Made by a program: the position numbers and the translations under genes
Shown: positions 29,966-41,109 of the stretch, piece by piece
Layout: every line of letters begins with the position of its first letter
Numbering within the stretch: position 1 is the stretch's first letter
The notes under the pieces: generated by a model
Told to the model about the DNA's origin: nothing
Database searches by the model: none
What the model saw: the letters and a program-made list of their open reading frames with translations, nothing else
Assembly (NCBI GenBank): GCA_903837605.1
Contig: CAILVF010000041.1
Location: 11,524-75,523 of the forward strand
Source: an uncultured Bacteroidales bacterium
Lineage (GTDB): Bacteria; Bacteroidota; Bacteroidia; Bacteroidales; FEN-979
Length of the DNA stretch: 64,000 nucleotides
Direction of reading: 5' to 3'

Positions 29966-30691
29966 ATGGAAATATCAATTCAAGGCGTTTCAAAGAAATA
30001 CAGGGGCAATAAATTCGGTCTGAAGGATTTTAACCTGGAGCTTAAAAACGGGATCATGGGCCTGATCGGCCCAAACGGAGCCGGGAAATCGACACTGATG
30101 CGGATCCTTGCAACGATCTCAAAGCCTACCGAAGGGAAGATCACTCTTGACGGCATGGATATCGTAAAGCACCCCGATACCGTGAGAAAAATACTCGGTT
30201 ACCTTCCCCAGGATTTCGGGGTATACCCCAATCTCACAGCCATGGAATTCCTTGAATACATTGCAGCAATAAAGGGGTTCACAGGAAAAGGCCTAAAACT
30301 AAGGATTGAAGCCCTGCTCGAAGAGCTCAACCTCACTACGGTCAGGAACAGGCCGATCGGGACTTACTCGGGAGGCATGAAGCAGAGAATAGGGATCGCC
30401 CAGGTACTGCTTGGTGATCCTAAGCTGCTGATCCTCGACGAACCTACAGTAGGCCTTGATCCCGAAGAGAGGGTGCGTTTCCGTAACCTGCTTACTGAAC
30501 TGTCGGGGGAACGTATCGTTATCCTTTCATCCCATATTGTCTCAGACATTGAGACAATGGCAAACGATGTCACCATAATTTTCCAGGGCAGGGTACTTGA
30601 ACACAGCTTCTCAACGGAGAAAGGTACTTTGGAAGACACCTACCTGAATGTTATTGCATTTGCAAAAAGCGGAGGGAACCATGTTCTCTGA
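29966..30691 (+). CDS. ABC transporter ATP-binding protein (ABC-2 type)
   Basis: 241-aa ORF. Walker A GPNGAGKST, signature YSGGMKQR, Walker B LLILDEPT, and H-loop SSHIV. Confidence 0.9.
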   Translation: MEISIQGVSKKYRGNKFGLKDFNLELKNGIMGLIGPNGAGKSTLMRILATISKPTEGKITLDGMDIVKHPDTVRKILGYLPQDFGVYPNLTAMEFLEYIAAIKGFTGKGLKLRIEALLEELNLTTVRNRPIGTYSGGMKQRIGIAQVLLGDPKLLILDEPTVGLDPEERVRFRNLLTELSGERIVILSSHIVSDIETMANDVTIIFQGRVLEHSFSTEKGTLEDTYLNVIAFAKSGGNHVL

Positions 30692-32270
30692 TTACTCGGC
30701 GGGAAGTATCTATCATATCGCCAGGGCCGATTTTCTGCAGAGGACCCGCAGCTATTATTTCCTTATTGCCATCGGCGTATGTGTGTTCATCATCTATTCA
30801 TTTGTCCCTGCTCTCAATGCAGGTTATACCATAGTATCCCTGGGCAACTACCGGGGATTCTATAACTCAGCCTGGATCGGGAGCATGGTTTCAATGTGTG
30901 TTCCTTTTTTTGCCCTGATAGGCTTTTATCTTATAAACAATGCTGTAAAACGGGATTTTGATACGGGTGTGGGACAGATCATCGCGACAACGCGTATCAA
31001 CAAGGTTCAATACCTAACCGGGAAAATGTTCAGTAATTTCGCAGTACTTCTGCTGATGCTTCTGGTTATTGCAGTGATGACCATAGTGATGTTCCTGGTC
31101 AGGGGAGAAACCACACAACTGGAATTGGGTAAATTGCTGTTACCACTTCTTATCATAACAGTTCCAGCCATGTTCATTATTGCAGCCCTGGCCCTGTTTT
31201 TCGATTCATTAAGCGGTCCGGGCAGGGGATTCACTAACATCGCTTATTTCTTTGTCTGGATATTCCTGGTTTCATCAGGCATGTTGTCGCAGGCGACAGA
31301 CGTTTTCGGCGTCGATACCTGCATGCTTGAAATACAGAGATCCGTCGCTGCTGCGCATCCAGACTGGAACGGGCAGCATGGAACCGGTATTCTAATCATC
31401 GATTCAATCGGGAGGTGCAAAGTGTTTACCTGGGAAGGAATGCACTGGACTGGTTGGATCATTCTTCAACGCATTTTCTGGATGTGCGCTGCGTTTGGAT
31501 TGGTCCTGCTTGCTTCCCTGCGTTTTAACAGGTTCGATGCTTCCGGGGTAAAAGAGAAAAAGCAGAAAAAAGCCTGGTTCCAAAAGACAGGGCCTGCTGT
31601 TGCTGCAGATATCACTGCGCCACTCCGCATCAGATACCGTGATCTGCCTGCGGCTGTGGCAAGGTTCAGTTTTTTCAGCCTGGTTAAGGCTGAGTTGCAA
31701 CTTATGCTCAGGGGCAGGTCAAAGTTCTGGTTGATCCTCACTGCCGGGTTGTTCATTGCAACCGTATTTGCTCCTCTTGATTTCTCATATAAATTTGGAT
31801 TGCCCTTGCTATGGTTCCTCCAGGTGCTTATCCTTTCGAAACTGGGATGCAGGGAACTGATAAACCGCTGCAATGAATACATATTTTCAGCTGCTTTCCC
31901 GCTTCGCCGTCAGTTACCCGCAACCCTTTGCTCTGCCATTTTAGTCATGCTGTCGCTGGCTGTCCCTGTATTGTTCAGGGAATTCTTCTCAGGTAATATG
32001 TATGCTGTCTATGCCATTATTGTGGGAGCAGTCTTCATTCCTGCCTTTGCAGTCTCCTCAGGGATTATAAGCGGGGGAAGCAAATTGTTTGAAGTAGTAT
32101 TTACGATTATGGTTTATGGCATCCTGTATTCCGTCCCTTACTTTGATTTTACAGGCGGAGTCCCGGGTTCAAAGGAACTGGGCATAGCAAATTACTTGCT
32201 TGCAACTGCTTTGATCCTGGTCATCCTGTCTTTCCTGGTCAGAAAAAGGCAGATCATGCACTCGGCTTAA
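30681..32270 (+). CDS. Multi-pass ABC-2-like permease / membrane protein
   Basis: About 529 aa starting at MFSDYSAGSIYHI, overlapping the ATPase stop by 11 nt. More than 10 hydrophobic helices. No specific family recognised. Confidence 0.65.
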   Translation: MFSDYSAGSIYHIARADFLQRTRSYYFLIAIGVCVFIIYSFVPALNAGYTIVSLGNYRGFYNSAWIGSMVSMCVPFFALIGFYLINNAVKRDFDTGVGQIIATTRINKVQYLTGKMFSNFAVLLLMLLVIAVMTIVMFLVRGETTQLELGKLLLPLLIITVPAMFIIAALALFFDSLSGPGRGFTNIAYFFVWIFLVSSGMLSQATDVFGVDTCMLEIQRSVAAAHPDWNGQHGTGILIIDSIGRCKVFTWEGMHWTGWIILQRIFWMCAAFGLVLLASLRFNRFDASGVKEKKQKKAWFQKTGPAVAADITAPLRIRYRDLPAAVARFSFFSLVKAELQLMLRGRSKFWLILTAGLFIATVFAPLDFSYKFGLPLLWFLQVLILSKLGCRELINRCNEYIFSAAFPLRRQLPATLCSAILVMLSLAVPVLFREFFSGNMYAVYAIIVGAVFIPAFAVSSGIISGGSKLFEVVFTIMVYGILYSVPYFDFTGGVPGSKELGIANYLLATALILVILSFLVRKRQIMHSA

Positions 32271-32313: not shown

Positions 32314-35300
32314 TCATTGCTTCATAAAAGATTTCAAACGGGAGAGGTAATCCATCCTGTTTGCATCGGAAAGCTGGTAGTCAAACTGACCTAACGACTG
32401 CTGAAGATCGAAATAATCCTTCAGCAGGGAATAATAGGAATTGTTTCGCGACATGCTGCTGACAATGAACTGCTGCTGGGCATCCAGCACATCGAGTATG
32501 CTTTTTTTCCCGAGCAGGTATTGATTGGTCACCAGTTCAAGGTTTTTACGGCCGGCGGTTTCGGCTAGCAGCCATTGCTGGTGGCCGAGGTAATCCGACA
32601 TTAATGTGGTGAGGTTACTGCGGATGACCGATTCGAGCTTATCCAGCTGTGACTGACGTTCACTCCTGCGCTGGGCCAGCGTGAGACGCGCCTTCTGCAT
32701 GGTGGCGTTATTCTTCAAACCCGTAAACAGGGGGAGCTCCACCCTGGCCTGGATGTTCCATGTATCGTCAGGAGCAGGGAAGGGCCAATCAGAAGGCATG
32801 GTCTGGTATAGCCGGTTCGTATAACTTCCCGAAGCGGTGGTATTCGGAATAAACCTCGAGATATTGGCCGAACGGGCAGCGCGCTGCTGGGCGGCTATCA
32901 GGAAGTCATACTGATGTATCACCGGTGATTTGTCTTTCCCTTCCCTGACCAGGAAATTACTTAGTTTATCAAGCCTGATAGGATCTTCGAGTATGCGGTA
33001 GAACTCCGGATCGGCTATGAGAAGGCCGGAGGTCTCAAGCTCCACATCAGCCAGGTTGTATGAAACGAGATACCTCACATGGATCAGCTCAAGCAGGGTA
33101 AATACCGACTGTGTCATGGTGGAATAGGCGTTGATCACATCCTTTTTGGCTTTGGCTACTTCGATCTGCCAGCGGTAAACTTCATTTTCCCCTACTGAAC
33201 CCGATTCTTTTTTCATTTTCGAGATCTCGAGGTTCGATCTGCTGATCATCAGGTTATTGAGTAACAACATGAAATTATGCCTGTTTTCGAGAATGCTCAG
33301 ATAAGCCCTGGCCGTCTGGTTTCCGATATCCAGCTTCCGGGTGTTCAGATCTTCAACCAATGCCTGCTGGTTCGAGGCAGTGACCCTGAGGTTGGACCAG
33401 ACAGGTTCTGAATAAACCGACTGTGAGATGCTTCCGGTAGCAGATACCATCTGGGGCGCCTGGTAATTTTTACTGTCGTTCAAAGCGCCTACGACATATG
33501 CATCGAGGCTGGGAAGCAGGCTGGATCGCGCAATATCGATATTTTTAGCGCCGGCTTTCACTTCGAACTTTTTCGCGACCAAAGCCTGGTTGCTGTCTAA
33601 AGCAAGTGCCATTATCTCCCTGAGCTGAACGAACTGAACCGAAGTATCCTGTTTGAGCAGGTCAACGATGGTAGCCTCTGTAAGAATATCCCAGGAAAGT
33701 ATTTTTAATCCGAGTTTGGCAAAGGTGGTCAGGTTCAGGAAAAGCCCCCTTCCCGACAGCAGTTCAACCGGGAGGGAAGAAGCATTCTCCCCTAGCAGTA
33801 CCTGCTGTATATCGAGCGCTATTCGTTTCGAAAGCCGGTCGATAAGCCGGGGATACAATGAAGCAAGCACACCTTCCTCCACATCGCCCTGGTCAAATCC
33901 GAAACTAGGCAGCTTACGGGCCGTCAGTGAATCGACGAGCATTTTGAATTGCCCTGAGGGCATTTTAAAAAGGGCGTCCACGTAAACTGCATTGGTTTCT
34001 TTTGGCAGGGCCCTGATGATTTCCAGAGCCGAAGTATCGCAAAGGATCATATTGATCCTGACCCCGTTGATGGTGTCGAAATTGGTGAAAGGCCGGTGTT
34101 CAGGATTCAGGATGTCCATATAATCCTTGCTCACCAGGATAGACAGGTCATCGAAATTCGCGATCTTTTTCATCTCGGCGAACTCATTTTCAATAGCGGG
34201 TTTTAGCTGGATGTAAGCCAGGTTATTAACCCCGCTGCTGCCATGGTTATAAGGAATACCCTGGAGCTGGTAATTCACGACAGGGGCTGCGATCACAGGT
34301 TTTGAAAGATTTTTCCGGTGACAGAGGTCATGGGCTGCTATTATGCCGAGCGACACAATGATGTCCACCTTATTATCGGCCAGCAGCCTGTCGTTGACAG
34401 CTTTTACGCTTCCCATGGTCCATTGGCCCGTGGTGAGTTCCGCAGGCTCGGTAAACACGATATCGACCTGTCCCGACATCAGGCTTCTGATCTCCTTCTC
34501 CATGGTGGAGAGGTAAAGTGAATTTGAGCGCGCCGGGCCGTCAAATACTATGGCGACGTGCACCGCATGCATATTGAATTCGAGAGGTTTCTGCGCCTTT
34601 GCCTGGGAGTTGGCAGCCAGGGAGAAGAATATCCCCAGGAGTATGGTAACCACAGCAGGCAGGGCAGCATGCCTGCTGCGTTTCCGTTCATCGCGTTTTT
34701 CCATAAATCGGGCCACTTTTTCATAAATGATGGGAACGACCACCAGGGTAAGGAACATGGAACTGGTAAGTCCCCCGATAAGGGCCCATGCCAGTCCGTT
34801 CTTCCATTCGGCACCGGCACCTGCAGCGGTGGCGATAGGCAGCATCCCGAAGACCATCGCGAAGGTGGTCATGAAAATCGGGCGGATACGCATCCTGCCC
34901 GCGTCGATAAGAGCGTCGAATATCGATTCGCCTTCCGACCTTTTTTCATTGGTACGGTCCACGATGAGTATGGCATTCTTGGCAACCAGTCCAACCATCA
35001 TGATAATGCCCAGGATAGAGAATACGTTGATTGTATTATGGGTGAATGCCAGTGCCAGGATAGCCCCTATAAGGGCTACAGGGATTGAGAACAGCACGAC
35101 AAAGGGGTAAATAAAGGAGTCATACAGGATAACCATGATGAAATATACGAAGATCACTGCAGCGACTAGGGCTGCGAAAAGACTCAGGAAGGAAGTCATC
35201 ATCTCTTCCTGGTCACCGCCGAAGCCGATAACTGTGCCCCCGGCTTTGGCGGTTCCCAACCTTGCAGAAAATGCCTGGACCACCGAACCCGCGGGGGAGC

Positions 35301-37752
35301 CGTCGGTATATGCGCTCACGGTAGTGAGGGCATTGCGGTTCTTGCGCTCCAGCTTCGTAGGCCCTGAGGCCTGGTATATGTTGGCGAACTGCTGCAGTTC
35401 AATGATCTTGTTCTTGCTGTTGATAAACGAAAGATGTGCGATGTCGTCAGGGTTGGTTCTGTCAAATTTATCAAGCGCCACGCGGATATCAAACTGGTTT
35501 GATCCGTCCCGGTATTTCGAGTCGTTATTCCCGGTGAGCGCTACCTGCAGGGCCGAACCCACATCGCTTACACTCAGCCCGAGGGCCGCCATCTTCTGAC
35601 GGTCGATCTCAACACGGGTTTCGGGGTTACCCCTGGTGGCAGAGAACCGAAGGTACGTAACGCCCGGAGTCAGTATAAGCGCTTTTGCGACCATGTCGGC
35701 CGACTTCATGATCGAGTCATAACTTATGCCGGTTATCTCTACCTGGACCGGAGCCGAGCTGGCTCCCCCGGTAAAGCCGATCTGGTTCACAAACACCTTC
35801 ACACCCGGGATCTTGTCGGTAAGTAATTTGACCTTTGAACCCAGTTCGGCTGTGGATAATGAACGCTTGTTTTTCGCACAGATTGAAACCACGATCTCAG
35901 TTTCGTTATCGGCACTTACCCCGTCGCTGCCTTTCCCCACATTGGTGAGGATGTTCGTTACTTCGGGCAGGGTTGAGATGATCTCTTCAATTTTCCGGCT
36001 CTGGCGGTTGTTGCTTTCAAGCGTGGTTCCCGGGGCGTATTCAAGGGCCACCGAGAACTGGCTGCGGTCGGTCTGTTTCATGAATTCAAACCCGGTCAGC
36101 CCGGCTGCGGGGATAATCAGGCTTATGATGAGGCCCGAGGCAACGACGAACAGCACCTTATAAGGATTTCCAAGGCTCCATCCGAGGATCATTGCGTACT
36201 TGCCGGTGAGCCATTTGAAGGCCCCTTCAAAGACCTTCCCGAAACGGTTCAGAAGGCTTTGGGAGTCTATGGATTCCAGTTTGGCAAAGCGGGATGCGAG
36301 GATGGGGGTGACTGTAAAAGAGACCAGAAGGCTGGTGAGGGTCGAAACGAGTATGATGATGGAGAATCCGCGGATGATATCGCCTATGAGCCCAGTGGTC
36401 AAGGCCAGGGGGACGAATACCACGATGTCGACAAAGGTGATGGAGATGGCTGCAAAACCGATCTCGTTGCGGCCCCTGATAGAGGCAGTGAGCTTGTCTT
36501 CACCCTTTTCGAGGTGATGGTAGATATTCTCAAGAACCACGATACTGTCGTCGACCAGGATACCAATTACCAGCGACAGAGCCAGCAAGGTGAACAGGTT
36601 GAGCGACATTCCGAAGATCCACATCACTACGAAGGCCGTGGTGAGAGAGCAGGGAATAGAAACCATGACGATGAGTGAAGTGCGCACCGAATGAAGGAAA
36701 AGGAACATCACGGCAGCCACCAGCAAAATAGCAAGCATAAGATCTTCCATCACGGCACGGGCAGCAGCCATAGTAAATATGCTCTGGTCGTCGGCTATGT
36801 CAAAATGAAGGCCCACTCCCTTATAATCGGCCTCAAGCACTTTTAATTCCTTTCGCAGCAGCTCGCATACCTTGACCATATTGGCATCGTTTTGCTTCTG
36901 GATCTCAAGCCCCAGTGAATTGATGCCGTTGAACCTGCTGATGAGGGTAGGGTCAACGGTTGCATCATGGATCTCGGCGATATCGCGAAGACGGATCTCG
37001 CCACCCTCTTTGGAATAGCCTACGACCAGGTTCTTCATTTCCTCAAGGGAAGTGAACTTGCCTGCAACACGAACCACGTACTGGTGAAGGGGATCTTTTA
37101 ATTTTCCTGTCGGGAAATCCAGATTGGCTGCATTGATGAAGTTGGCAACCTGGCTTATAGACAGGGAGTAGGACCTGACTTTCTGGGCATCGATGTTAAC
37201 CTTTATCTCCCTTTTCAGCCCGCCGTTAATACTGATATTTCCAACACCCTGCACCCTTGAAAGACGGGGTTTGATCTGGTCGTCGACCAGGGTGTAAAAC
37301 CTGGCAGGGGACAGGCTGGAAGTAAGTGAAAGCCTCAACACCGGGATCTGGCTCACCGAATAGGTCAGTAAAGAAGGGGTTTTAATCTCTTTAGGCAGGG
37401 TTGAGAGAATTTCATTCACCTTCCTTTGTACATCCTGAACAGCGACATTAATGGTTGCATTCCTGTAAAATTCTATGGCGATGAGTGAAAGTCCTTCGTA
37501 TGAAGTGGAGCTGATATTCTTCACTTTCTCGATCCCCGAAAGGGCATCTTCAATAGGACGGGTGACATTGTTTTCCACTTCGCCAGGTGAAGCTCCGGGG
37601 TATTGGGTTTTGACGGTGACATAAGGCTGATCTATCTTGGGCAGCAGCTCGTAACCAAGCTGGTAATACCCGAAAACCGCCAGCATTCCCAGGGCCAGAA
37701 AGATCACAATGATAAATGACGGGCGTTTTATCGCTAATTCGGTTATCGACAT
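32314..37752 (-). CDS. RND efflux permease fused in frame to a signal/TM segment, a periplasmic-binding-like domain and a TolC-family outer-membrane factor
   Basis: Uninterrupted 1812-aa ORF. Residues 1-1016 are a complete 12-TM RND pump (MSITELAIKRPSFIIVIF..., VLENI, ...VVVPIIYEKVARF). Residues 1017-1051 are MEKRDERKRSRHAALPAVVTILLGIFFSLAANSQA. Residues from about 1372 are OEP/TolC-like (LREIMALALDSNQALVAKKFEVKAGAKNIDIARSSLLPSLDAY...). Confidence 0.8.
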   Translation of the reverse strand: MSITELAIKRPSFIIVIFLALGMLAVFGYYQLGYELLPKIDQPYVTVKTQYPGASPGEVENNVTRPIEDALSGIEKVKNISSTSYEGLSLIAIEFYRNATINVAVQDVQRKVNEILSTLPKEIKTPSLLTYSVSQIPVLRLSLTSSLSPARFYTLVDDQIKPRLSRVQGVGNISINGGLKREIKVNIDAQKVRSYSLSISQVANFINAANLDFPTGKLKDPLHQYVVRVAGKFTSLEEMKNLVVGYSKEGGEIRLRDIAEIHDATVDPTLISRFNGINSLGLEIQKQNDANMVKVCELLRKELKVLEADYKGVGLHFDIADDQSIFTMAAARAVMEDLMLAILLVAAVMFLFLHSVRTSLIVMVSIPCSLTTAFVVMWIFGMSLNLFTLLALSLVIGILVDDSIVVLENIYHHLEKGEDKLTASIRGRNEIGFAAISITFVDIVVFVPLALTTGLIGDIIRGFSIIILVSTLTSLLVSFTVTPILASRFAKLESIDSQSLLNRFGKVFEGAFKWLTGKYAMILGWSLGNPYKVLFVVASGLIISLIIPAAGLTGFEFMKQTDRSQFSVALEYAPGTTLESNNRQSRKIEEIISTLPEVTNILTNVGKGSDGVSADNETEIVVSICAKNKRSLSTAELGSKVKLLTDKIPGVKVFVNQIGFTGGASSAPVQVEITGISYDSIMKSADMVAKALILTPGVTYLRFSATRGNPETRVEIDRQKMAALGLSVSDVGSALQVALTGNNDSKYRDGSNQFDIRVALDKFDRTNPDDIAHLSFINSKNKIIELQQFANIYQASGPTKLERKNRNALTTVSAYTDGSPAGSVVQAFSARLGTAKAGGTVIGFGGDQEEMMTSFLSLFAALVAAVIFVYFIMVILYDSFIYPFVVLFSIPVALIGAILALAFTHNTINVFSILGIIMMVGLVAKNAILIVDRTNEKRSEGESIFDALIDAGRMRIRPIFMTTFAMVFGMLPIATAAGAGAEWKNGLAWALIGGLTSSMFLTLVVVPIIYEKVARFMEKRDERKRSRHAALPAVVTILLGIFFSLAANSQAKAQKPLEFNMHAVHVAIVFDGPARSNSLYLSTMEKEIRSLMSGQVDIVFTEPAELTTGQWTMGSVKAVNDRLLADNKVDIIVSLGIIAAHDLCHRKNLSKPVIAAPVVNYQLQGIPYNHGSSGVNNLAYIQLKPAIENEFAEMKKIANFDDLSILVSKDYMDILNPEHRPFTNFDTINGVRINMILCDTSALEIIRALPKETNAVYVDALFKMPSGQFKMLVDSLTARKLPSFGFDQGDVEEGVLASLYPRLIDRLSKRIALDIQQVLLGENASSLPVELLSGRGLFLNLTTFAKLGLKILSWDILTEATIVDLLKQDTSVQFVQLREIMALALDSNQALVAKKFEVKAGAKNIDIARSSLLPSLDAYVVGALNDSKNYQAPQMVSATGSISQSVYSEPVWSNLRVTASNQQALVEDLNTRKLDIGNQTARAYLSILENRHNFMLLLNNLMISRSNLEISKMKKESGSVGENEVYRWQIEVAKAKKDVINAYSTMTQSVFTLLELIHVRYLVSYNLADVELETSGLLIADPEFYRILEDPIRLDKLSNFLVREGKDKSPVIHQYDFLIAAQQRAARSANISRFIPNTTASGSYTNRLYQTMPSDWPFPAPDDTWNIQARVELPLFTGLKNNATMQKARLTLAQRRSERQSQLDKLESVIRSNLTTLMSDYLGHQQWLLAETAGRKNLELVTNQYLLGKKSILDVLDAQQQFIVSSMSRNNSYYSLLKDYFDLQQSLGQFDYQLSDANRMDYLSRLKSFMKQ
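33669..34572 (-). other. Periplasmic-binding-protein-like (ABC_sub_bind-like) domain preceding the TolC-like part
   Basis: Alternating beta-alpha pattern: HVAIVFDGP, VDIIVSLGIIAAHDL, KPVIAAPVVN, SSGVNNLAYI, LSILVSKDY, NAVYVDALF. Assigned by resemblance only. Confidence 0.4.
34600..34704 (-). other. Internal in-frame ATG plus Sec-signal-peptide-like / 13th TM segment at the RND-OMF junction
   Basis: Codon 1017 is ATG (34704-34702). It is followed by a basic n-region KRDERKRSRH, a 19-residue hydrophobic core AALPAVVTILLGIFFSLAA, and an SQA|K small-residue -3/-1 site. Confidence 0.6.
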
Positions 37753-37767: not shown

Positions 37768-38817
37768 TTATTTGACAATGATAACCTTCAGGTTGTTGGA
37801 AAGATTGTTCTGGCCGCTGGTCACTACCATCTCCCCTTCTTCAAGCCCGTTCAGCACTTCAAGCAGCTGTCCCGATTCACGCCCAATGGTTATATTCCTT
37901 AAGGAAGCTATATTTCCTTTGATTACGAAAACCTGGGCATTCTTAACACTCCCGATCAGGGCGTCGCGGGAAATTGCGATAGCGTCGCGGGAAGTGATGG
38001 AGGTGAAATTAATCCGCCCGAACATCCCTCCTTTCAATGGGAAAGCGGCGCTGTTCGGAAGATGGATCTCAACAGGATACGTATGGGCTTCGTCGGCTTT
38101 GGAAGCGATATTGTCGACATGGCCCAAAAACCGGTGGCCCGGGTAGACATCGGTTGTGATCTCCACGCTGTCACCGGGATGAAGCACAAAGGCGTCTTTT
38201 TCAGAGATGCTCACTTTCACCTTCATGGTGGAGATATCAACGATGTTCCCGATTGATGAATTCTGCTGGATATAGGAACCCTCGTTGACTTTTTTAGTGT
38301 TGATGGTGCCGTTGATCGGGGCTTTGACCTTGGTGTCGTCAAGGGCTCTTTTGGCCCTGGTCAGGTCATTCTCGGCCGCCTGCATATCGAGCCTGGAAAT
38401 GTCGAGTTGGGATGCCGAGATAGAGTTTTGCTCGTACAGGGTCTTGTTGCGGTCGAAATCGCGTTTTGCTTTGAAATAATTGATCTCCTGCCTGGCCAGA
38501 TCCGATTTTATAATGGCATCATCGATCTCAACAAGTACAGTGCCTTTTTTGACCTGGTCGCCTATCTTGAAATTCAATCGCGTTATCATCCCTTTTGCTT
38601 CGGATATGATTTCCACATCATTTTCGGGATCTATCAGCCCGACCATGCTTACCAGGTTGGTCAGCGACTTTTTTATTACCGTGTCGATAGTGACAGGAAC
38701 ATTGCTGAGCACCTCCTGCCTGCCTGAATTTTCTTTTTTATGACCCAGAAAAAAAAGCCCTGCGATGATCAGGATCACGACCACCGAAGCGATAATGGTA
38801 AAATAGAGTTTTTTCAT
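37768..38817 (-). CDS. RND efflux periplasmic adaptor (membrane fusion protein, HlyD/AcrA family)
   Basis: 349-aa ORF. N-terminal anchor helix, lipoyl/hairpin/beta-barrel blocks (GDQVKKGTVLVEIDD, coiled-coil QLDISRLDMQAAENDLTRAKRALDDTKVKAPINGTI). Located 15 nt upstream of the RND start. Confidence 0.9.
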   Translation of the reverse strand: MKKLYFTIIASVVVILIIAGLFFLGHKKENSGRQEVLSNVPVTIDTVIKKSLTNLVSMVGLIDPENDVEIISEAKGMITRLNFKIGDQVKKGTVLVEIDDAIIKSDLARQEINYFKAKRDFDRNKTLYEQNSISASQLDISRLDMQAAENDLTRAKRALDDTKVKAPINGTINTKKVNEGSYIQQNSSIGNIVDISTMKVKVSISEKDAFVLHPGDSVEITTDVYPGHRFLGHVDNIASKADEAHTYPVEIHLPNSAAFPLKGGMFGRINFTSITSRDAIAISRDALIGSVKNAQVFVIKGNIASLRNITIGRESGQLLEVLNGLEEGEMVVTSGQNNLSNNLKVIIVK

Positions 38818-38934: not shown

Positions 38935-38942
38935 CAAAGATA
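38935..38942 (-). promoter_or_regulatory. -7 promoter box TATCTTTG for the efflux operon
   Basis: The reverse complement of CAAAGATA matches TAnnTTTG, about 118 nt upstream of the adaptor ATG, in the 240-nt gap after the response regulator. Confidence 0.45.
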
Positions 38943-39057: not shown

Positions 39058-39759
39058 CTATTTTGCAGGAACATTAAAAATGAAACCGACTCCAAATACA
39101 TTCTCAATACTTAAATCCGGATCTTCCTTAAGGTATTTACGTATTTTAGTGATAAACACATCCAGGCTGCGGCCGAAAAAATAGTCGTTCTCACCCCACA
39201 GGTCTTTTAACAGTTCTTCACGTTTTATTACAGTATTCGGGTGTGCGGATAAATAGTTTAGTATATCACTTTCCTTTTCGGTGATTCGCCTTGCTTTACC
39301 AGCAATGGCCAGGGATTGATTATGAAAGTCAAATGTATATTCACCGATTTTAATAGTTCCGGTCCTCACTTCACTTATATTTTCTGGGATCCTGCGGATA
39401 ACAGCTTTAATTTTCCAGAGCAATTCCTCCTCATCAAATGGCTTGGTGATATAATCATCAGCACCCAAACCATATCCTTTTAATTTATATTCCCTTAAAG
39501 ACTTTGCCGTAATAAAAATGACGGGTATCTTTTTATCCTTTAACCTGATCTCTTTTGCAAGGGTAAACCCATCCATTTTCGGCATCATGACATCCAGCAA
39601 GCACAGATCAAAAGGATTGAACTGAAATGCTTTTAACGCCAACTCCCCGTCTTTACAAAGTTTCACATCAAACCCTTCGGCATCCAGGTAATCAACTAAA
39701 AGGACTCCTAAGTTGAGATCATCCTCCGCAAGTAATATTTTGAACCGTTTCTCAGGCAT
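39058..39759 (-). CDS. OmpR/PhoB-family response regulator (REC plus winged-helix)
   Basis: The start is set at MPEKRFKILLAEDD, 2 nt after the kinase stop. Phospho-acceptor context DLCLLDVMMPKMDG. C-terminal trans_reg_C-like LTEKESDILNYL...VFGVGFIF. Confidence 0.9.
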   Translation of the reverse strand: MPEKRFKILLAEDDLNLGVLLVDYLDAEGFDVKLCKDGELALKAFQFNPFDLCLLDVMMPKMDGFTLAKEIRLKDKKIPVIFITAKSLREYKLKGYGLGADDYITKPFDEEELLWKIKAVIRRIPENISEVRTGTIKIGEYTFDFHNQSLAIAGKARRITEKESDILNYLSAHPNTVIKREELLKDLWGENDYFFGRSLDVFITKIRKYLKEDPDLSIENVFGVGFIFNVPAK

Positions 39760-41005
39760 TGGGAAATGTAATAATGAATGATGTCCCTTTTCCTTTTTCG
39801 CTCTGAAGTTCAATTGTTCCTCCATGCAATTCAACAACCTTTTTTACGTAAGCCAAACCGAGACCAAATCCCTTCACATCATGTACGTCCCCGGTAGGGA
39901 CCCGGAAAAATTTATCGAACACTTTCTTTTGATATTCCTTTTCAATACCGATACCATCATCGGAAACAGCAACAACTAAATTGTAACCAATATTGGATGT
40001 TTGAATGCATAATTCAGGTTTTTCCCCGGAATATTTAACGGCGTTGTCAATCAGGTTGCAAAACGAATTTATCAGATGTGTACGGTCTCCAATTACCATA
40101 AACTGCCCGGCATCCAGGTTTAATTTTATGTTCCCATGTTTGTTTTCGATCTGCAAGCTGATACATTTTAATGCTGCATTGATCAACTCGTGAAAATCCA
40201 ATTCCGATTTGTGTAAAGGGATCTCGCCTCTTTCAAGTGCAGTCATGCTTAACACCTGCTCAACCTGAAGCCTTAACTTTTCATTCTCTTCAATAATTAT
40301 TCCCGAGTAATGTTTTATTTTATCTCCTTCCTTAATGGCAGAATCCTTTAGTATCATCTTTCCTGCCAGGGCAATGTTTGTTAAAGGTGTTTTAAATTCA
40401 TGGGTCATATTGTTTAAAAAGTCGGTGGTATGCTCCGAAATTTCTTTCTCCCTGATAAATGACAGAATTGTTCGCCAGAACATGATAAGCACGATAATTA
40501 TCAGGATGACTGAAGTGATGAAAAGTGTTCCCATCTCCGCGATAATGAATTGCTTTTTCTCAGGGAAAATAAGTTTCAATTCTACTTCTTTTTTACTGCC
40601 CACATCTTCCAAAGGTTTATTATAAATGAGGTTTGCAGAACGGCTTTCATTTAACGTTGTCAGGTATCCAGGTTTTGCGACTACAAAAGAATATTCAATA
40701 TGAATGTTGTAAAACTTCATATAATGAGTTAGCAAGGAATCAATCTTATGGACTTCATCCTTTCCCAATTTCACAGCTATTCCCGGGGTACTATCCATTT
40801 CGACGCAAGCTCCGATTTTTATACAGGTTTCTTTATCAGAACGGAGAGCGTCGGTTGTTCTTGAAAGAACCATATTGGCCTTTTCATTAAACAACTCTTC
40901 TTTTATTTTGGCTGTCTGTAAGATCCAATTCACCTGAATTATCAGCACCATTGCTAATGCGATGGATGAAATTGCGATAAGCAGCCAGGTTCGGTTTGGT
41001 TTCAT
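39752..41005 (-). CDS. Two-TM sensor histidine kinase (HisKA plus HATPase_c)
   Basis: The start is set at MKPNRTWLLIAISSIALAMVL. H-box THEFKTPLTNI, N-box LIDNAVKY, G-boxes DDGIGI and GFGLGLAYVKKVVELHGG. Confidence 0.85.
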   Translation of the reverse strand: MKPNRTWLLIAISSIALAMVLIIQVNWILQTAKIKEELFNEKANMVLSRTTDALRSDKETCIKIGACVEMDSTPGIAVKLGKDEVHKIDSLLTHYMKFYNIHIEYSFVVAKPGYLTTLNESRSANLIYNKPLEDVGSKKEVELKLIFPEKKQFIIAEMGTLFITSVILIIIVLIMFWRTILSFIREKEISEHTTDFLNNMTHEFKTPLTNIALAGKMILKDSAIKEGDKIKHYSGIIIEENEKLRLQVEQVLSMTALERGEIPLHKSELDFHELINAALKCISLQIENKHGNIKLNLDAGQFMVIGDRTHLINSFCNLIDNAVKYSGEKPELCIQTSNIGYNLVVAVSDDGIGIEKEYQKKVFDKFFRVPTGDVHDVKGFGLGLAYVKKVVELHGGTIELQSEKGKGTSFIITFPNA

Positions 41006-41109
41006 TTGATTCCACAAAATTAGCCATTTAAAATGGCTTTTAAGCACCAATAACAAGTCATTAACAACTCAATAACCAGTCAATAACAGGACTCCAGTTG
41101 ATTTAAAAC

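Follow-up and report, generated by a model that had tools for sequence, protein, structure and literature searches.

A conserved natural fusion of an RND permease and a TolC-type channel in Bacteroidales, with a predicted signal peptide at the internal junction

Introduction

In the textbook view, an efflux pump of the AcrAB-TolC type is assembled from the products of three genes, which reach two different membranes by separate routes. Here we analyze a pump operon in an uncultured Bacteroidales bacterium, located in a stretch of 64,000 nucleotides (assembly GCA_903837605.1, contig CAILVF010000041.1, positions 11,524 to 75,523), which we call the window and within which all positions are counted. 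The operon encodes the same three components as AcrAB-TolC, MexAB-OprM, and BmeABC of Bacteroides, i.e. an adaptor, a permease of the resistance-nodulation-division (RND) family, and a channel that also here has the TolC fold. Unlike in these pumps, the permease and the channel form one reading frame, joined by what appears to be the signal peptide of the channel, and the channel bears an extra binding-protein-like domain of approximately 300 residues.

A likeness outside the efflux pumps is FbcH of Bradyrhizobium japonicum, reportedly described by Thony-Meyer and colleagues in about 1991 as a cytochrome b / cytochrome c1 precursor that is split at an internal signal peptide. In FbcH a polytopic inner membrane protein with a cytoplasmic end is said to precede an internal signal, and the exported protein behind this signal to belong to one complex with the first, an order also seen here. 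The FbcH precursor is reportedly processed into two proteins, and its cleavage is said to have been shown, whereas cleavage is predicted in our case. Moreover, both FbcH products are said to remain at the inner membrane, whereas the second product here would proceed to the outer membrane. Our literature searches returned no study of natural RND-channel fusions, nothing relevant on bacterial internal-signal polyproteins, and no paper on TolC proteins with a binding-protein domain. A search for the word "fused" in two reviews, the available part of PMC8277102 and PMC4446572, retrieved no natural permease-channel fusion.

Exported proteins of Bacteroidetes are described in two papers (PMC5837995, PMC10653852) as following a "Q-rule", according to which Gln occupies position +1 after the signal peptidase I site. 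Such Sec signals and the segment studied here have in common a basic n-region, a hydrophobic h-region, a Gly close to the h/c boundary, small residues at -3 and -1, and Gln at +1. The segment differs from them in its position, 1016 residues into the chain and behind 12 membrane helices instead of at the N-terminus. An earlier note on this DNA had pointed to the segment and to an ATG in front of it, and had proposed two readings of the same bases. To these our analysis adds a corrected cut site prediction, the Q-rule of the genome itself, unfused relatives in which the two genes overlap or abut, and an account of the internal ATG as probably belonging to the pump tail.

Results

One reading frame for permease and channel

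Minus-strand reading and translation yielded one uninterrupted open reading frame (ORF) of 1812 codons at 32314..37752 (minus strand, as for all pump features below). According to the ORF list, the translation and Pfam, it joins an RND permease, a signal-like segment, a binding-protein-like domain, and a TolC-like channel. This arrangement is a conserved natural fusion and not an error. Residues 1-1016 (34705..37752) constitute an HAE1-type permease: ACR_tran (PF00873) matches residues 4-1013 with E 3.4e-244 over profile positions 2-1020 of 1021, a full-length match to the 12-helix profile, and the NCBIfam model RND_permease_2 matches residues 4-1014. The hydrophobic segments of the permease extend to residues 991-1009, and the permease part ends in a short cytoplasmic amphipathic tail (YEKVARF). 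Beyond the junction, PF04392 (ABC_sub_bind) matches residues 1122-1351 at 29.4 bits, slightly over its cut-off of 25.9, and two OEP repeats (TolC, PF02321) were found by Pfam within the C-terminal 440 residues, in agreement with NCBIfam. Directly upstream on the same strand lies the gene for the periplasmic adaptor, or membrane-fusion protein (37768..38817; Pfam HlyD_D23, E 1.5e-29, and HlyD_3), which ends 15 bases ahead of the start of the fused ORF. Adaptor, permease and TolC-type channel are encoded in one operon.

The part following the permease (796 residues from Met1017) was modeled with AlphaFold2 from a 21-row alignment, yielding a mean predicted local distance difference test score (pLDDT) of 81.4. 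Model residues 47-331 (approximately residues 1063-1347 of the fused chain; 33712..34566) form an alpha/beta domain, for which Foldseek retrieved the PF04392-type binding proteins 3lft_B, 6hni and 3lkv as the nearest solved structures, with TM-scores of 0.73-0.76 on the target. Fold and family profile together identify the middle domain as periplasmic binding-protein-like, joined here to TolC and not to an ABC importer. Model residues 357-796 (approximately residues 1373-1812; 32317..33636) match TolC, CmeC, OprM and CusC with TM-scores of 0.68-0.82 on the target. The structures 1ek9, 7ng9 and 5bun scored 0.72-0.82, and for 1ek9_A the TM-score was 0.78 with E 1.5e-18. With its two OEP repeats and TolC fold this part qualifies as an outer membrane factor. 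At the N-terminal end of the model, residues 16-32 form a low-confidence helix (h-region pLDDT approximately 52-68), residues 32-40 around the predicted cut are disordered, and immediately after them comes the first strand of the binding domain.

A database search with residues 990-1400 matched 28 proteins, 24 of which were full-length fusions of 1810-1861 residues with the same four Pfam domains. These relatives were 33-88% identical over the junction and came mostly from Bacteroidota/Bacteroidales metagenome bins; in the databases the fused protein is simply labeled RND permease. The remaining four matches were three truncated pieces and one RND-TolC fusion without the middle domain (P0029, 1485 residues), whose internal signal ends SQA/Q (...FFLSTSINSQA/QTKQ..., the slash marking the cut here and below). 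Among 401 sampled genomes of the same order, three, including this one, hold the fused form of approximately 1820 residues, six a stand-alone form of approximately 800 residues, and one an RND-TolC frame of 1480 residues. In the latter (L011, G296:C1) the permease is joined directly to TolC and the binding-like domain is absent.

The two genes of unfused relatives either lie a short gap apart or overlap by start and stop, and a single-base error in sequencing or assembly could merge such neighbors into one apparent ORF. However, the same continuous frame was found in 24 independent protein clusters, in 16 of the 17 metagenome loci whose match spans the junction without a change of frame, and in two other genomes of the order, and it persists down to 52% identity within the main clade. 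We therefore give an artefact next to no chance.

In the exceptional metagenome locus (L019, Ga0172370_10021601) an in-frame stop is located at approximately codon 145 of the match frame, four codons past the predicted cut (...SSSQAQQPV-stop-FKTGHV...). A near-identical cluster member (P0010) has Lys at this position; the locus is a pseudogene or else contains a sequencing error. The stop would produce a pump that has a 13th helix but lacks a channel.

The junction segment

The ATG of codon 1017 (34702..34704), the candidate nested start of the earlier note, is in frame; a string search placed MEKRDERK at residue 1017, and after Met1017 the chain reads MEKRDERKRSRH AALPAVVTILLGIFFSLAA NSQAKAQKPLEF. 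Both the ATG and the signal-like residues quoted in the note were recovered in the minus-strand translation, and its tripartite description of the segment agrees with our measurements. The n-region is a basic cytoplasmic stretch (residues 1011-1028, EKVARFMEKRDERKRSRH; 34669..34722) with 8 K/R versus 4 D/E, and the stretch is basic in all aligned relatives. It is followed by a hydrophobic 19-mer with a mean Kyte-Doolittle value of 2.3 (residues 1029-1047; 34612..34668), an h-region or a 13th membrane helix, whose length lies at the long end of the range of approximately 7-20 residues for h-regions. The c-region, NSQAKA (residues 1048-1053; 34594..34611), offers small uncharged residues at -3 and -1 (A1051 and A1053), as is characteristic of signal peptidase I sites, and Gln1054 (34591..34593) would be the new N-terminus of the exported part. 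The segment begins at residue 1017 of 1812 and is thereby not N-terminal; it would be so only with ATG 34704 as the start.

Conservation was counted in a 26-sequence family alignment, comparing columns 1015-1063. The best-kept columns of the junction are positions -7, -3, -1 and +1 relative to the predicted cut. Gly occupies position -7 (column 1047) in 17 of 26 sequences. Position -3 (column 1051, Ala in this protein) holds Ser in 12, Ala in 5, Val in 3, Leu in 3 and Thr in 2, so that 25/26 carry one of these five. At -1 (column 1053) Ala is present in 23/26, and at +1 (column 1054) Gln is present in 22/26 and His in 3. Both the sequence and the length of the h-region vary freely among the relatives, with insertions and deletions, and the n-region stays basic.

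For a 22-column log-odds matrix, half of 413 N-terminal signal-peptide sites from this genome served as the training set. The site between residues 1053 and 1054 received 18.1 bits, the highest score of all positions in the 1812-residue protein, with the reservation that columns -3, -1 and +1 are circular, the training sites having been picked by that very rule. Held-out real sites have a median of 19.0 bits, and this score falls at their 39th percentile; a fraction of only 5.2e-6 of 381,347 interior positions in other proteins reach it. With the three circular columns removed, the segment still ranked at the 31st percentile of held-out real signals. Because of the matrix score, its rarity among interior positions, and the conservation in relatives, the signal-like pattern exceeds chance.

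The earlier note had placed the cut after SQA (SQA/KAQ, between residues 1051 and 1052). That site scored 6.1 bits versus 18.1 for AKA/Q two residues further on, where Ala1053 and Gln1054 are conserved. On account of column conservation and matrix scores we moved the predicted cut to the conserved site AKA/QKPL, between residues 1053 and 1054 and between window bases 34594 and 34593.

The genome itself obeys the Q-rule. Of its 1041 signal-like ORFs, 432 have a (-3,-1) site followed by Gln, as compared to 44 of 1094 interior hydrophobic controls, and Gln makes up 21.7% of the +1 positions behind signal-like N-termini against a background of 3.2%. Q1054 accordingly conforms to a Q-rule substrate. 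A signal peptidase I gene is present (75 bits, in an open frame of 507 residues). By these measures the junction segment carries all the sequence hallmarks of a signal for Sec and signal peptidase I, and it is located at the point where the chain would have to pass from the cytoplasmic C-terminus of the pump into the periplasm.

Several observations weigh against a cleaved signal of this kind. The 19-residue h-region is long for a cleaved signal and equally suited to a stable membrane helix, and in the relatives, judged by eye on the alignment, the h-region spans approximately 13-17 residues. Three of 26 relatives have His instead of Gln at +1, and the circular matrix columns belong here as well. 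The search for a glutaminyl cyclase yielded a weak match to the plant-type PF05096 only (26.8 bits, in an 814-residue frame), the mammalian type not having been searched. The start-capable codons near the junction and the context of the internal ATG, both described below, are to be counted on the same side.

The length and hydrophobicity of the 19-mer would suffice for a permanent anchor, by which the binding-like domain and TolC remain tied covalently to the pump in one polypeptide reaching both membranes. AcrB and TolC are both trimers, which makes a 1:1 tether geometrically conceivable, and the helix is separated from the TolC fold by approximately 320 residues. A plain anchor, however, needs neither small residues at -1 and -3 nor Gln at +1, and yet these are among the best-conserved positions of the junction. 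The free variation of the helix, including insertions and deletions, speaks against specific packing, and stand-alone homologues export the same domains by an ordinary N-terminal signal. We consider an uncleaved 13th helix unlikely.

Unfused relatives and the origin of the fusion

The closest unfused pumps were found in nine other metagenome loci, in eight of which the downstream DNA was long enough for inspection (L029-L033, L035, L041-L042). In all eight, the RND frame stops and a separate gene for a binding-domain-TolC protein starts within approximately 65 bases. Start and stop overlap in L035 and L041, whose channel ATG coincides with the last codon of the RND frame. These channel genes all start at an ATG of their own and encode an ordinary signal peptide that ends just ahead of the first strand of the binding domain, such as MKEKILFVIILFLLCGAAQA/QNK and ...LLCGAAQA/QNKSLKGSVTIGIVVDG. 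Because the unfused channel genes bear ordinary signal peptides at the same place, the internal segment is, on this comparison, the putative signal peptide of the channel itself, carried into the interior of a longer chain. The likeness to the N-terminus of an exported outer membrane factor, remarked upon in the earlier note, here gains a basis in homology: the segment and the N-terminal signals of the unfused channels occupy homologous positions.

Stand-alone binding-domain-TolC proteins (e.g. P0037 with 777 residues, and L005-L010) show the same order of signal peptide, PF04392-like domain and TolC, and are 23-36% identical to the exported part of the fused ORF. They are encoded by separate genes and have a true N-terminal signal, unlike the internal one here. 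In six stand-alone homologues from the same order the N-terminal signals end A/Q (five) or G/Q (one), and the six genomes with this form carry no RND gene within 1.5 kb upstream. Such stand-alone proteins are common, and TolC-type channels with a PF04392-like N-terminal domain make up a large family of 1375 cluster representatives (50%-identity clusters) at E <= 0.001. Among the best 150 of these 1375, 106 were stand-alone proteins of 740-900 residues, 99 of the 106 with an N-terminal hydrophobic segment, and one was a fused form.

Two fused proteins (P0027 and P0028, 1861 residues) are approximately 80% identical in the pump part and 68% in the channel part to the unfused pairs of L041 and L035, as opposed to only approximately 55% (pump) and 35% (channel) to the clade of the protein in the window. 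Fused and unfused versions thus coexist in one subclade (P0027, P0028, L035, L041), and fusion therefore arose at least twice. The P0027/P0028-type fusion appears to have arisen from gene pairs with overlapping start and stop.

The internal ATG

The earlier note had also suggested that ATG 34704 starts a nested exported protein. The length and coordinates it gave for this product, 796 residues at 32314..34704, were correct. If such a gene existed, ribosomes would start also or mainly at ATG 34704 on the same mRNA, a separate 796-residue precursor would be cut at the same site as predicted above, and the fused read-through protein would be a side product or a minority form. The unfused channel genes do start at this junction, with the ATG at the last RND codon in L035 and L041, and a start-capable codon (ATG, GTG or TTG) stands in frame at Tyr1010+3 or +7 in each of the 20 fused loci readable as DNA. 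A start-context matrix, trained on half of the 1658 unambiguous starts of the genome, assigned ATG 34704 1.61 bits. Among 16,242 internal ATGs this ranks at the 94.9th percentile, but among held-out real starts only at the 23.3rd, an ambiguous result. The start of the fused ORF itself scored 5.01 bits and that of the adaptor 7.69.

Met1017 is present in only 11 of the 26 aligned family members, and the candidate start codon is in this sense not conserved. Moreover, a Met near the junction is a property of pump tails in general: among 55 distinct tails of unfused RND relatives, 34 place a Met no more than 8 residues away from the conserved Tyr that corresponds to Tyr1010 (typically YEIMEKIIAKF), with no nested gene behind it, and in 40/55 an ATG, GTG or TTG is found at that place. 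The start codon kept in every fused locus was consequently dropped as evidence for a nested gene, as unfused pump tails show the same Met. In the short tail helix of the pump, the positions taken by Met belong to the hydrophobic face (i, i+4), and they are for this reason explained without a nested gene. Met1017 is probably a hydrophobic residue of this helix, and its ATG incidental rather than a dedicated start.

Synonymous change was examined as a sign of an embedded start. The raw profile dips at codons 1008-1027; after correction for amino acid content, the ratio to expectation for codons 991-1017 was 0.83-0.93 in a close group of 7 sequences and 0.99-1.08 in a second group of 8, both within the normal range. 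Synonymous sites gave no clear indication of a nested start, the upstream codons being ordinary once corrected. A single small window past the ATG (codons 1021-1030; 77 pair-sites), seen in the close group alone, fell to 0.62 of expectation and was treated as no clear signal. No TAnnTTTG, which we take to be the Bacteroidetes -7 promoter consensus, was found in the 396 bases upstream of ATG 34704. This absence weighs little, because an internal start on the same mRNA needs no promoter.

Of the two readings proposed in the earlier note, a pump tail continuing into a 13th-helix or signal segment that would cross to the periplasm is favored by these results. The nested gene lacks specific support, given the presence of Met1017 in a minority of relatives, the same Met in unfused tails, and the ordinary synonymous sites upstream, and we think it improbable. 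Some internal initiation at the junction may occur.

Neighboring genes

Directly upstream of the pump operon, genes for a histidine kinase (434 residues) and an OmpR-type response regulator (259 residues as listed) are located at 39058..41056 (minus strand). The listed TTG start of the regulator overlaps the end of the kinase by 86 bases, and the receiver domain begins at residue 34; the true start is probably later than listed. In the 240-base gap between regulator and adaptor, a TAnnTTTG motif at 38942 (minus strand), approximately 125 bases upstream of the adaptor start at 38817, may mark the promoter of the operon. On the other side, genes for an ABC ATPase (241 residues) and an ABC-2-type membrane protein (540 residues) at 29966..32270 (plus strand) converge with the 3' end of the fused ORF across a 43-base gap.

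Discussion

The best explanation of the junction segment is, we believe, that it is the retained signal of a TolC-type channel, made internal by in-frame fusion to the 3' end of an RND gene, and that it is probably cut after translocation. It is established that RND permeases have 12 helices and leave the end of the chain in the cytoplasm. Our analysis establishes the order of the domains, how well the fusion and the cut site are conserved, how highly that site scores, and the homology with unfused pairs. The course given below, from translocation and cleavage through pyroglutamate formation to what becomes of either half, is one that we infer. The whole chain of 1812 residues would be translated from the start at 37752, and the 12 helices of the pump would enter the inner membrane, leaving the chain end cytoplasmic. 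The basic stretch 1011-1028 would stay inside, following the positive-inside rule, and the hydrophobic residues 1029-1047 would insert N-in/C-out and start Sec-dependent translocation of the following 759 residues. Signal peptidase I would then cut after Ala1053 (A-K-A/Q). The pump would retain the extra 13th helix as a stub, and the binding-domain-plus-TolC part from Gln1054 would be freed for assembly in the outer membrane. Gln1054 would probably be cyclized to pyroglutamate, as in other exported proteins of Bacteroidetes.

A bolder alternative is that the chain is not cut and forms a single polypeptide rooted in the inner membrane, the far end of which is an outer membrane channel; a milder form is that full-length and internally started products together tune the ratio of pump to channel. 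We hold either to be decidedly doubtful.

For annotation, the predicted cut lies two residues past the obvious SQA motif, and the mature N-terminus would probably be a blocked pyroglutamate. The internal ATG 34704 should not be marked as a separate gene start unless data to that effect are at hand. In the protein studied here, the inner membrane motor and the outer membrane duct of an efflux pump are translated as one chain, and the buried export signal appears built to part them. If the preferred account is true, equal production of pump and channel would be hard-wired, and Sec and signal peptidase I would be able to process a signal behind 12 membrane helices, with the permease left holding a 13th.

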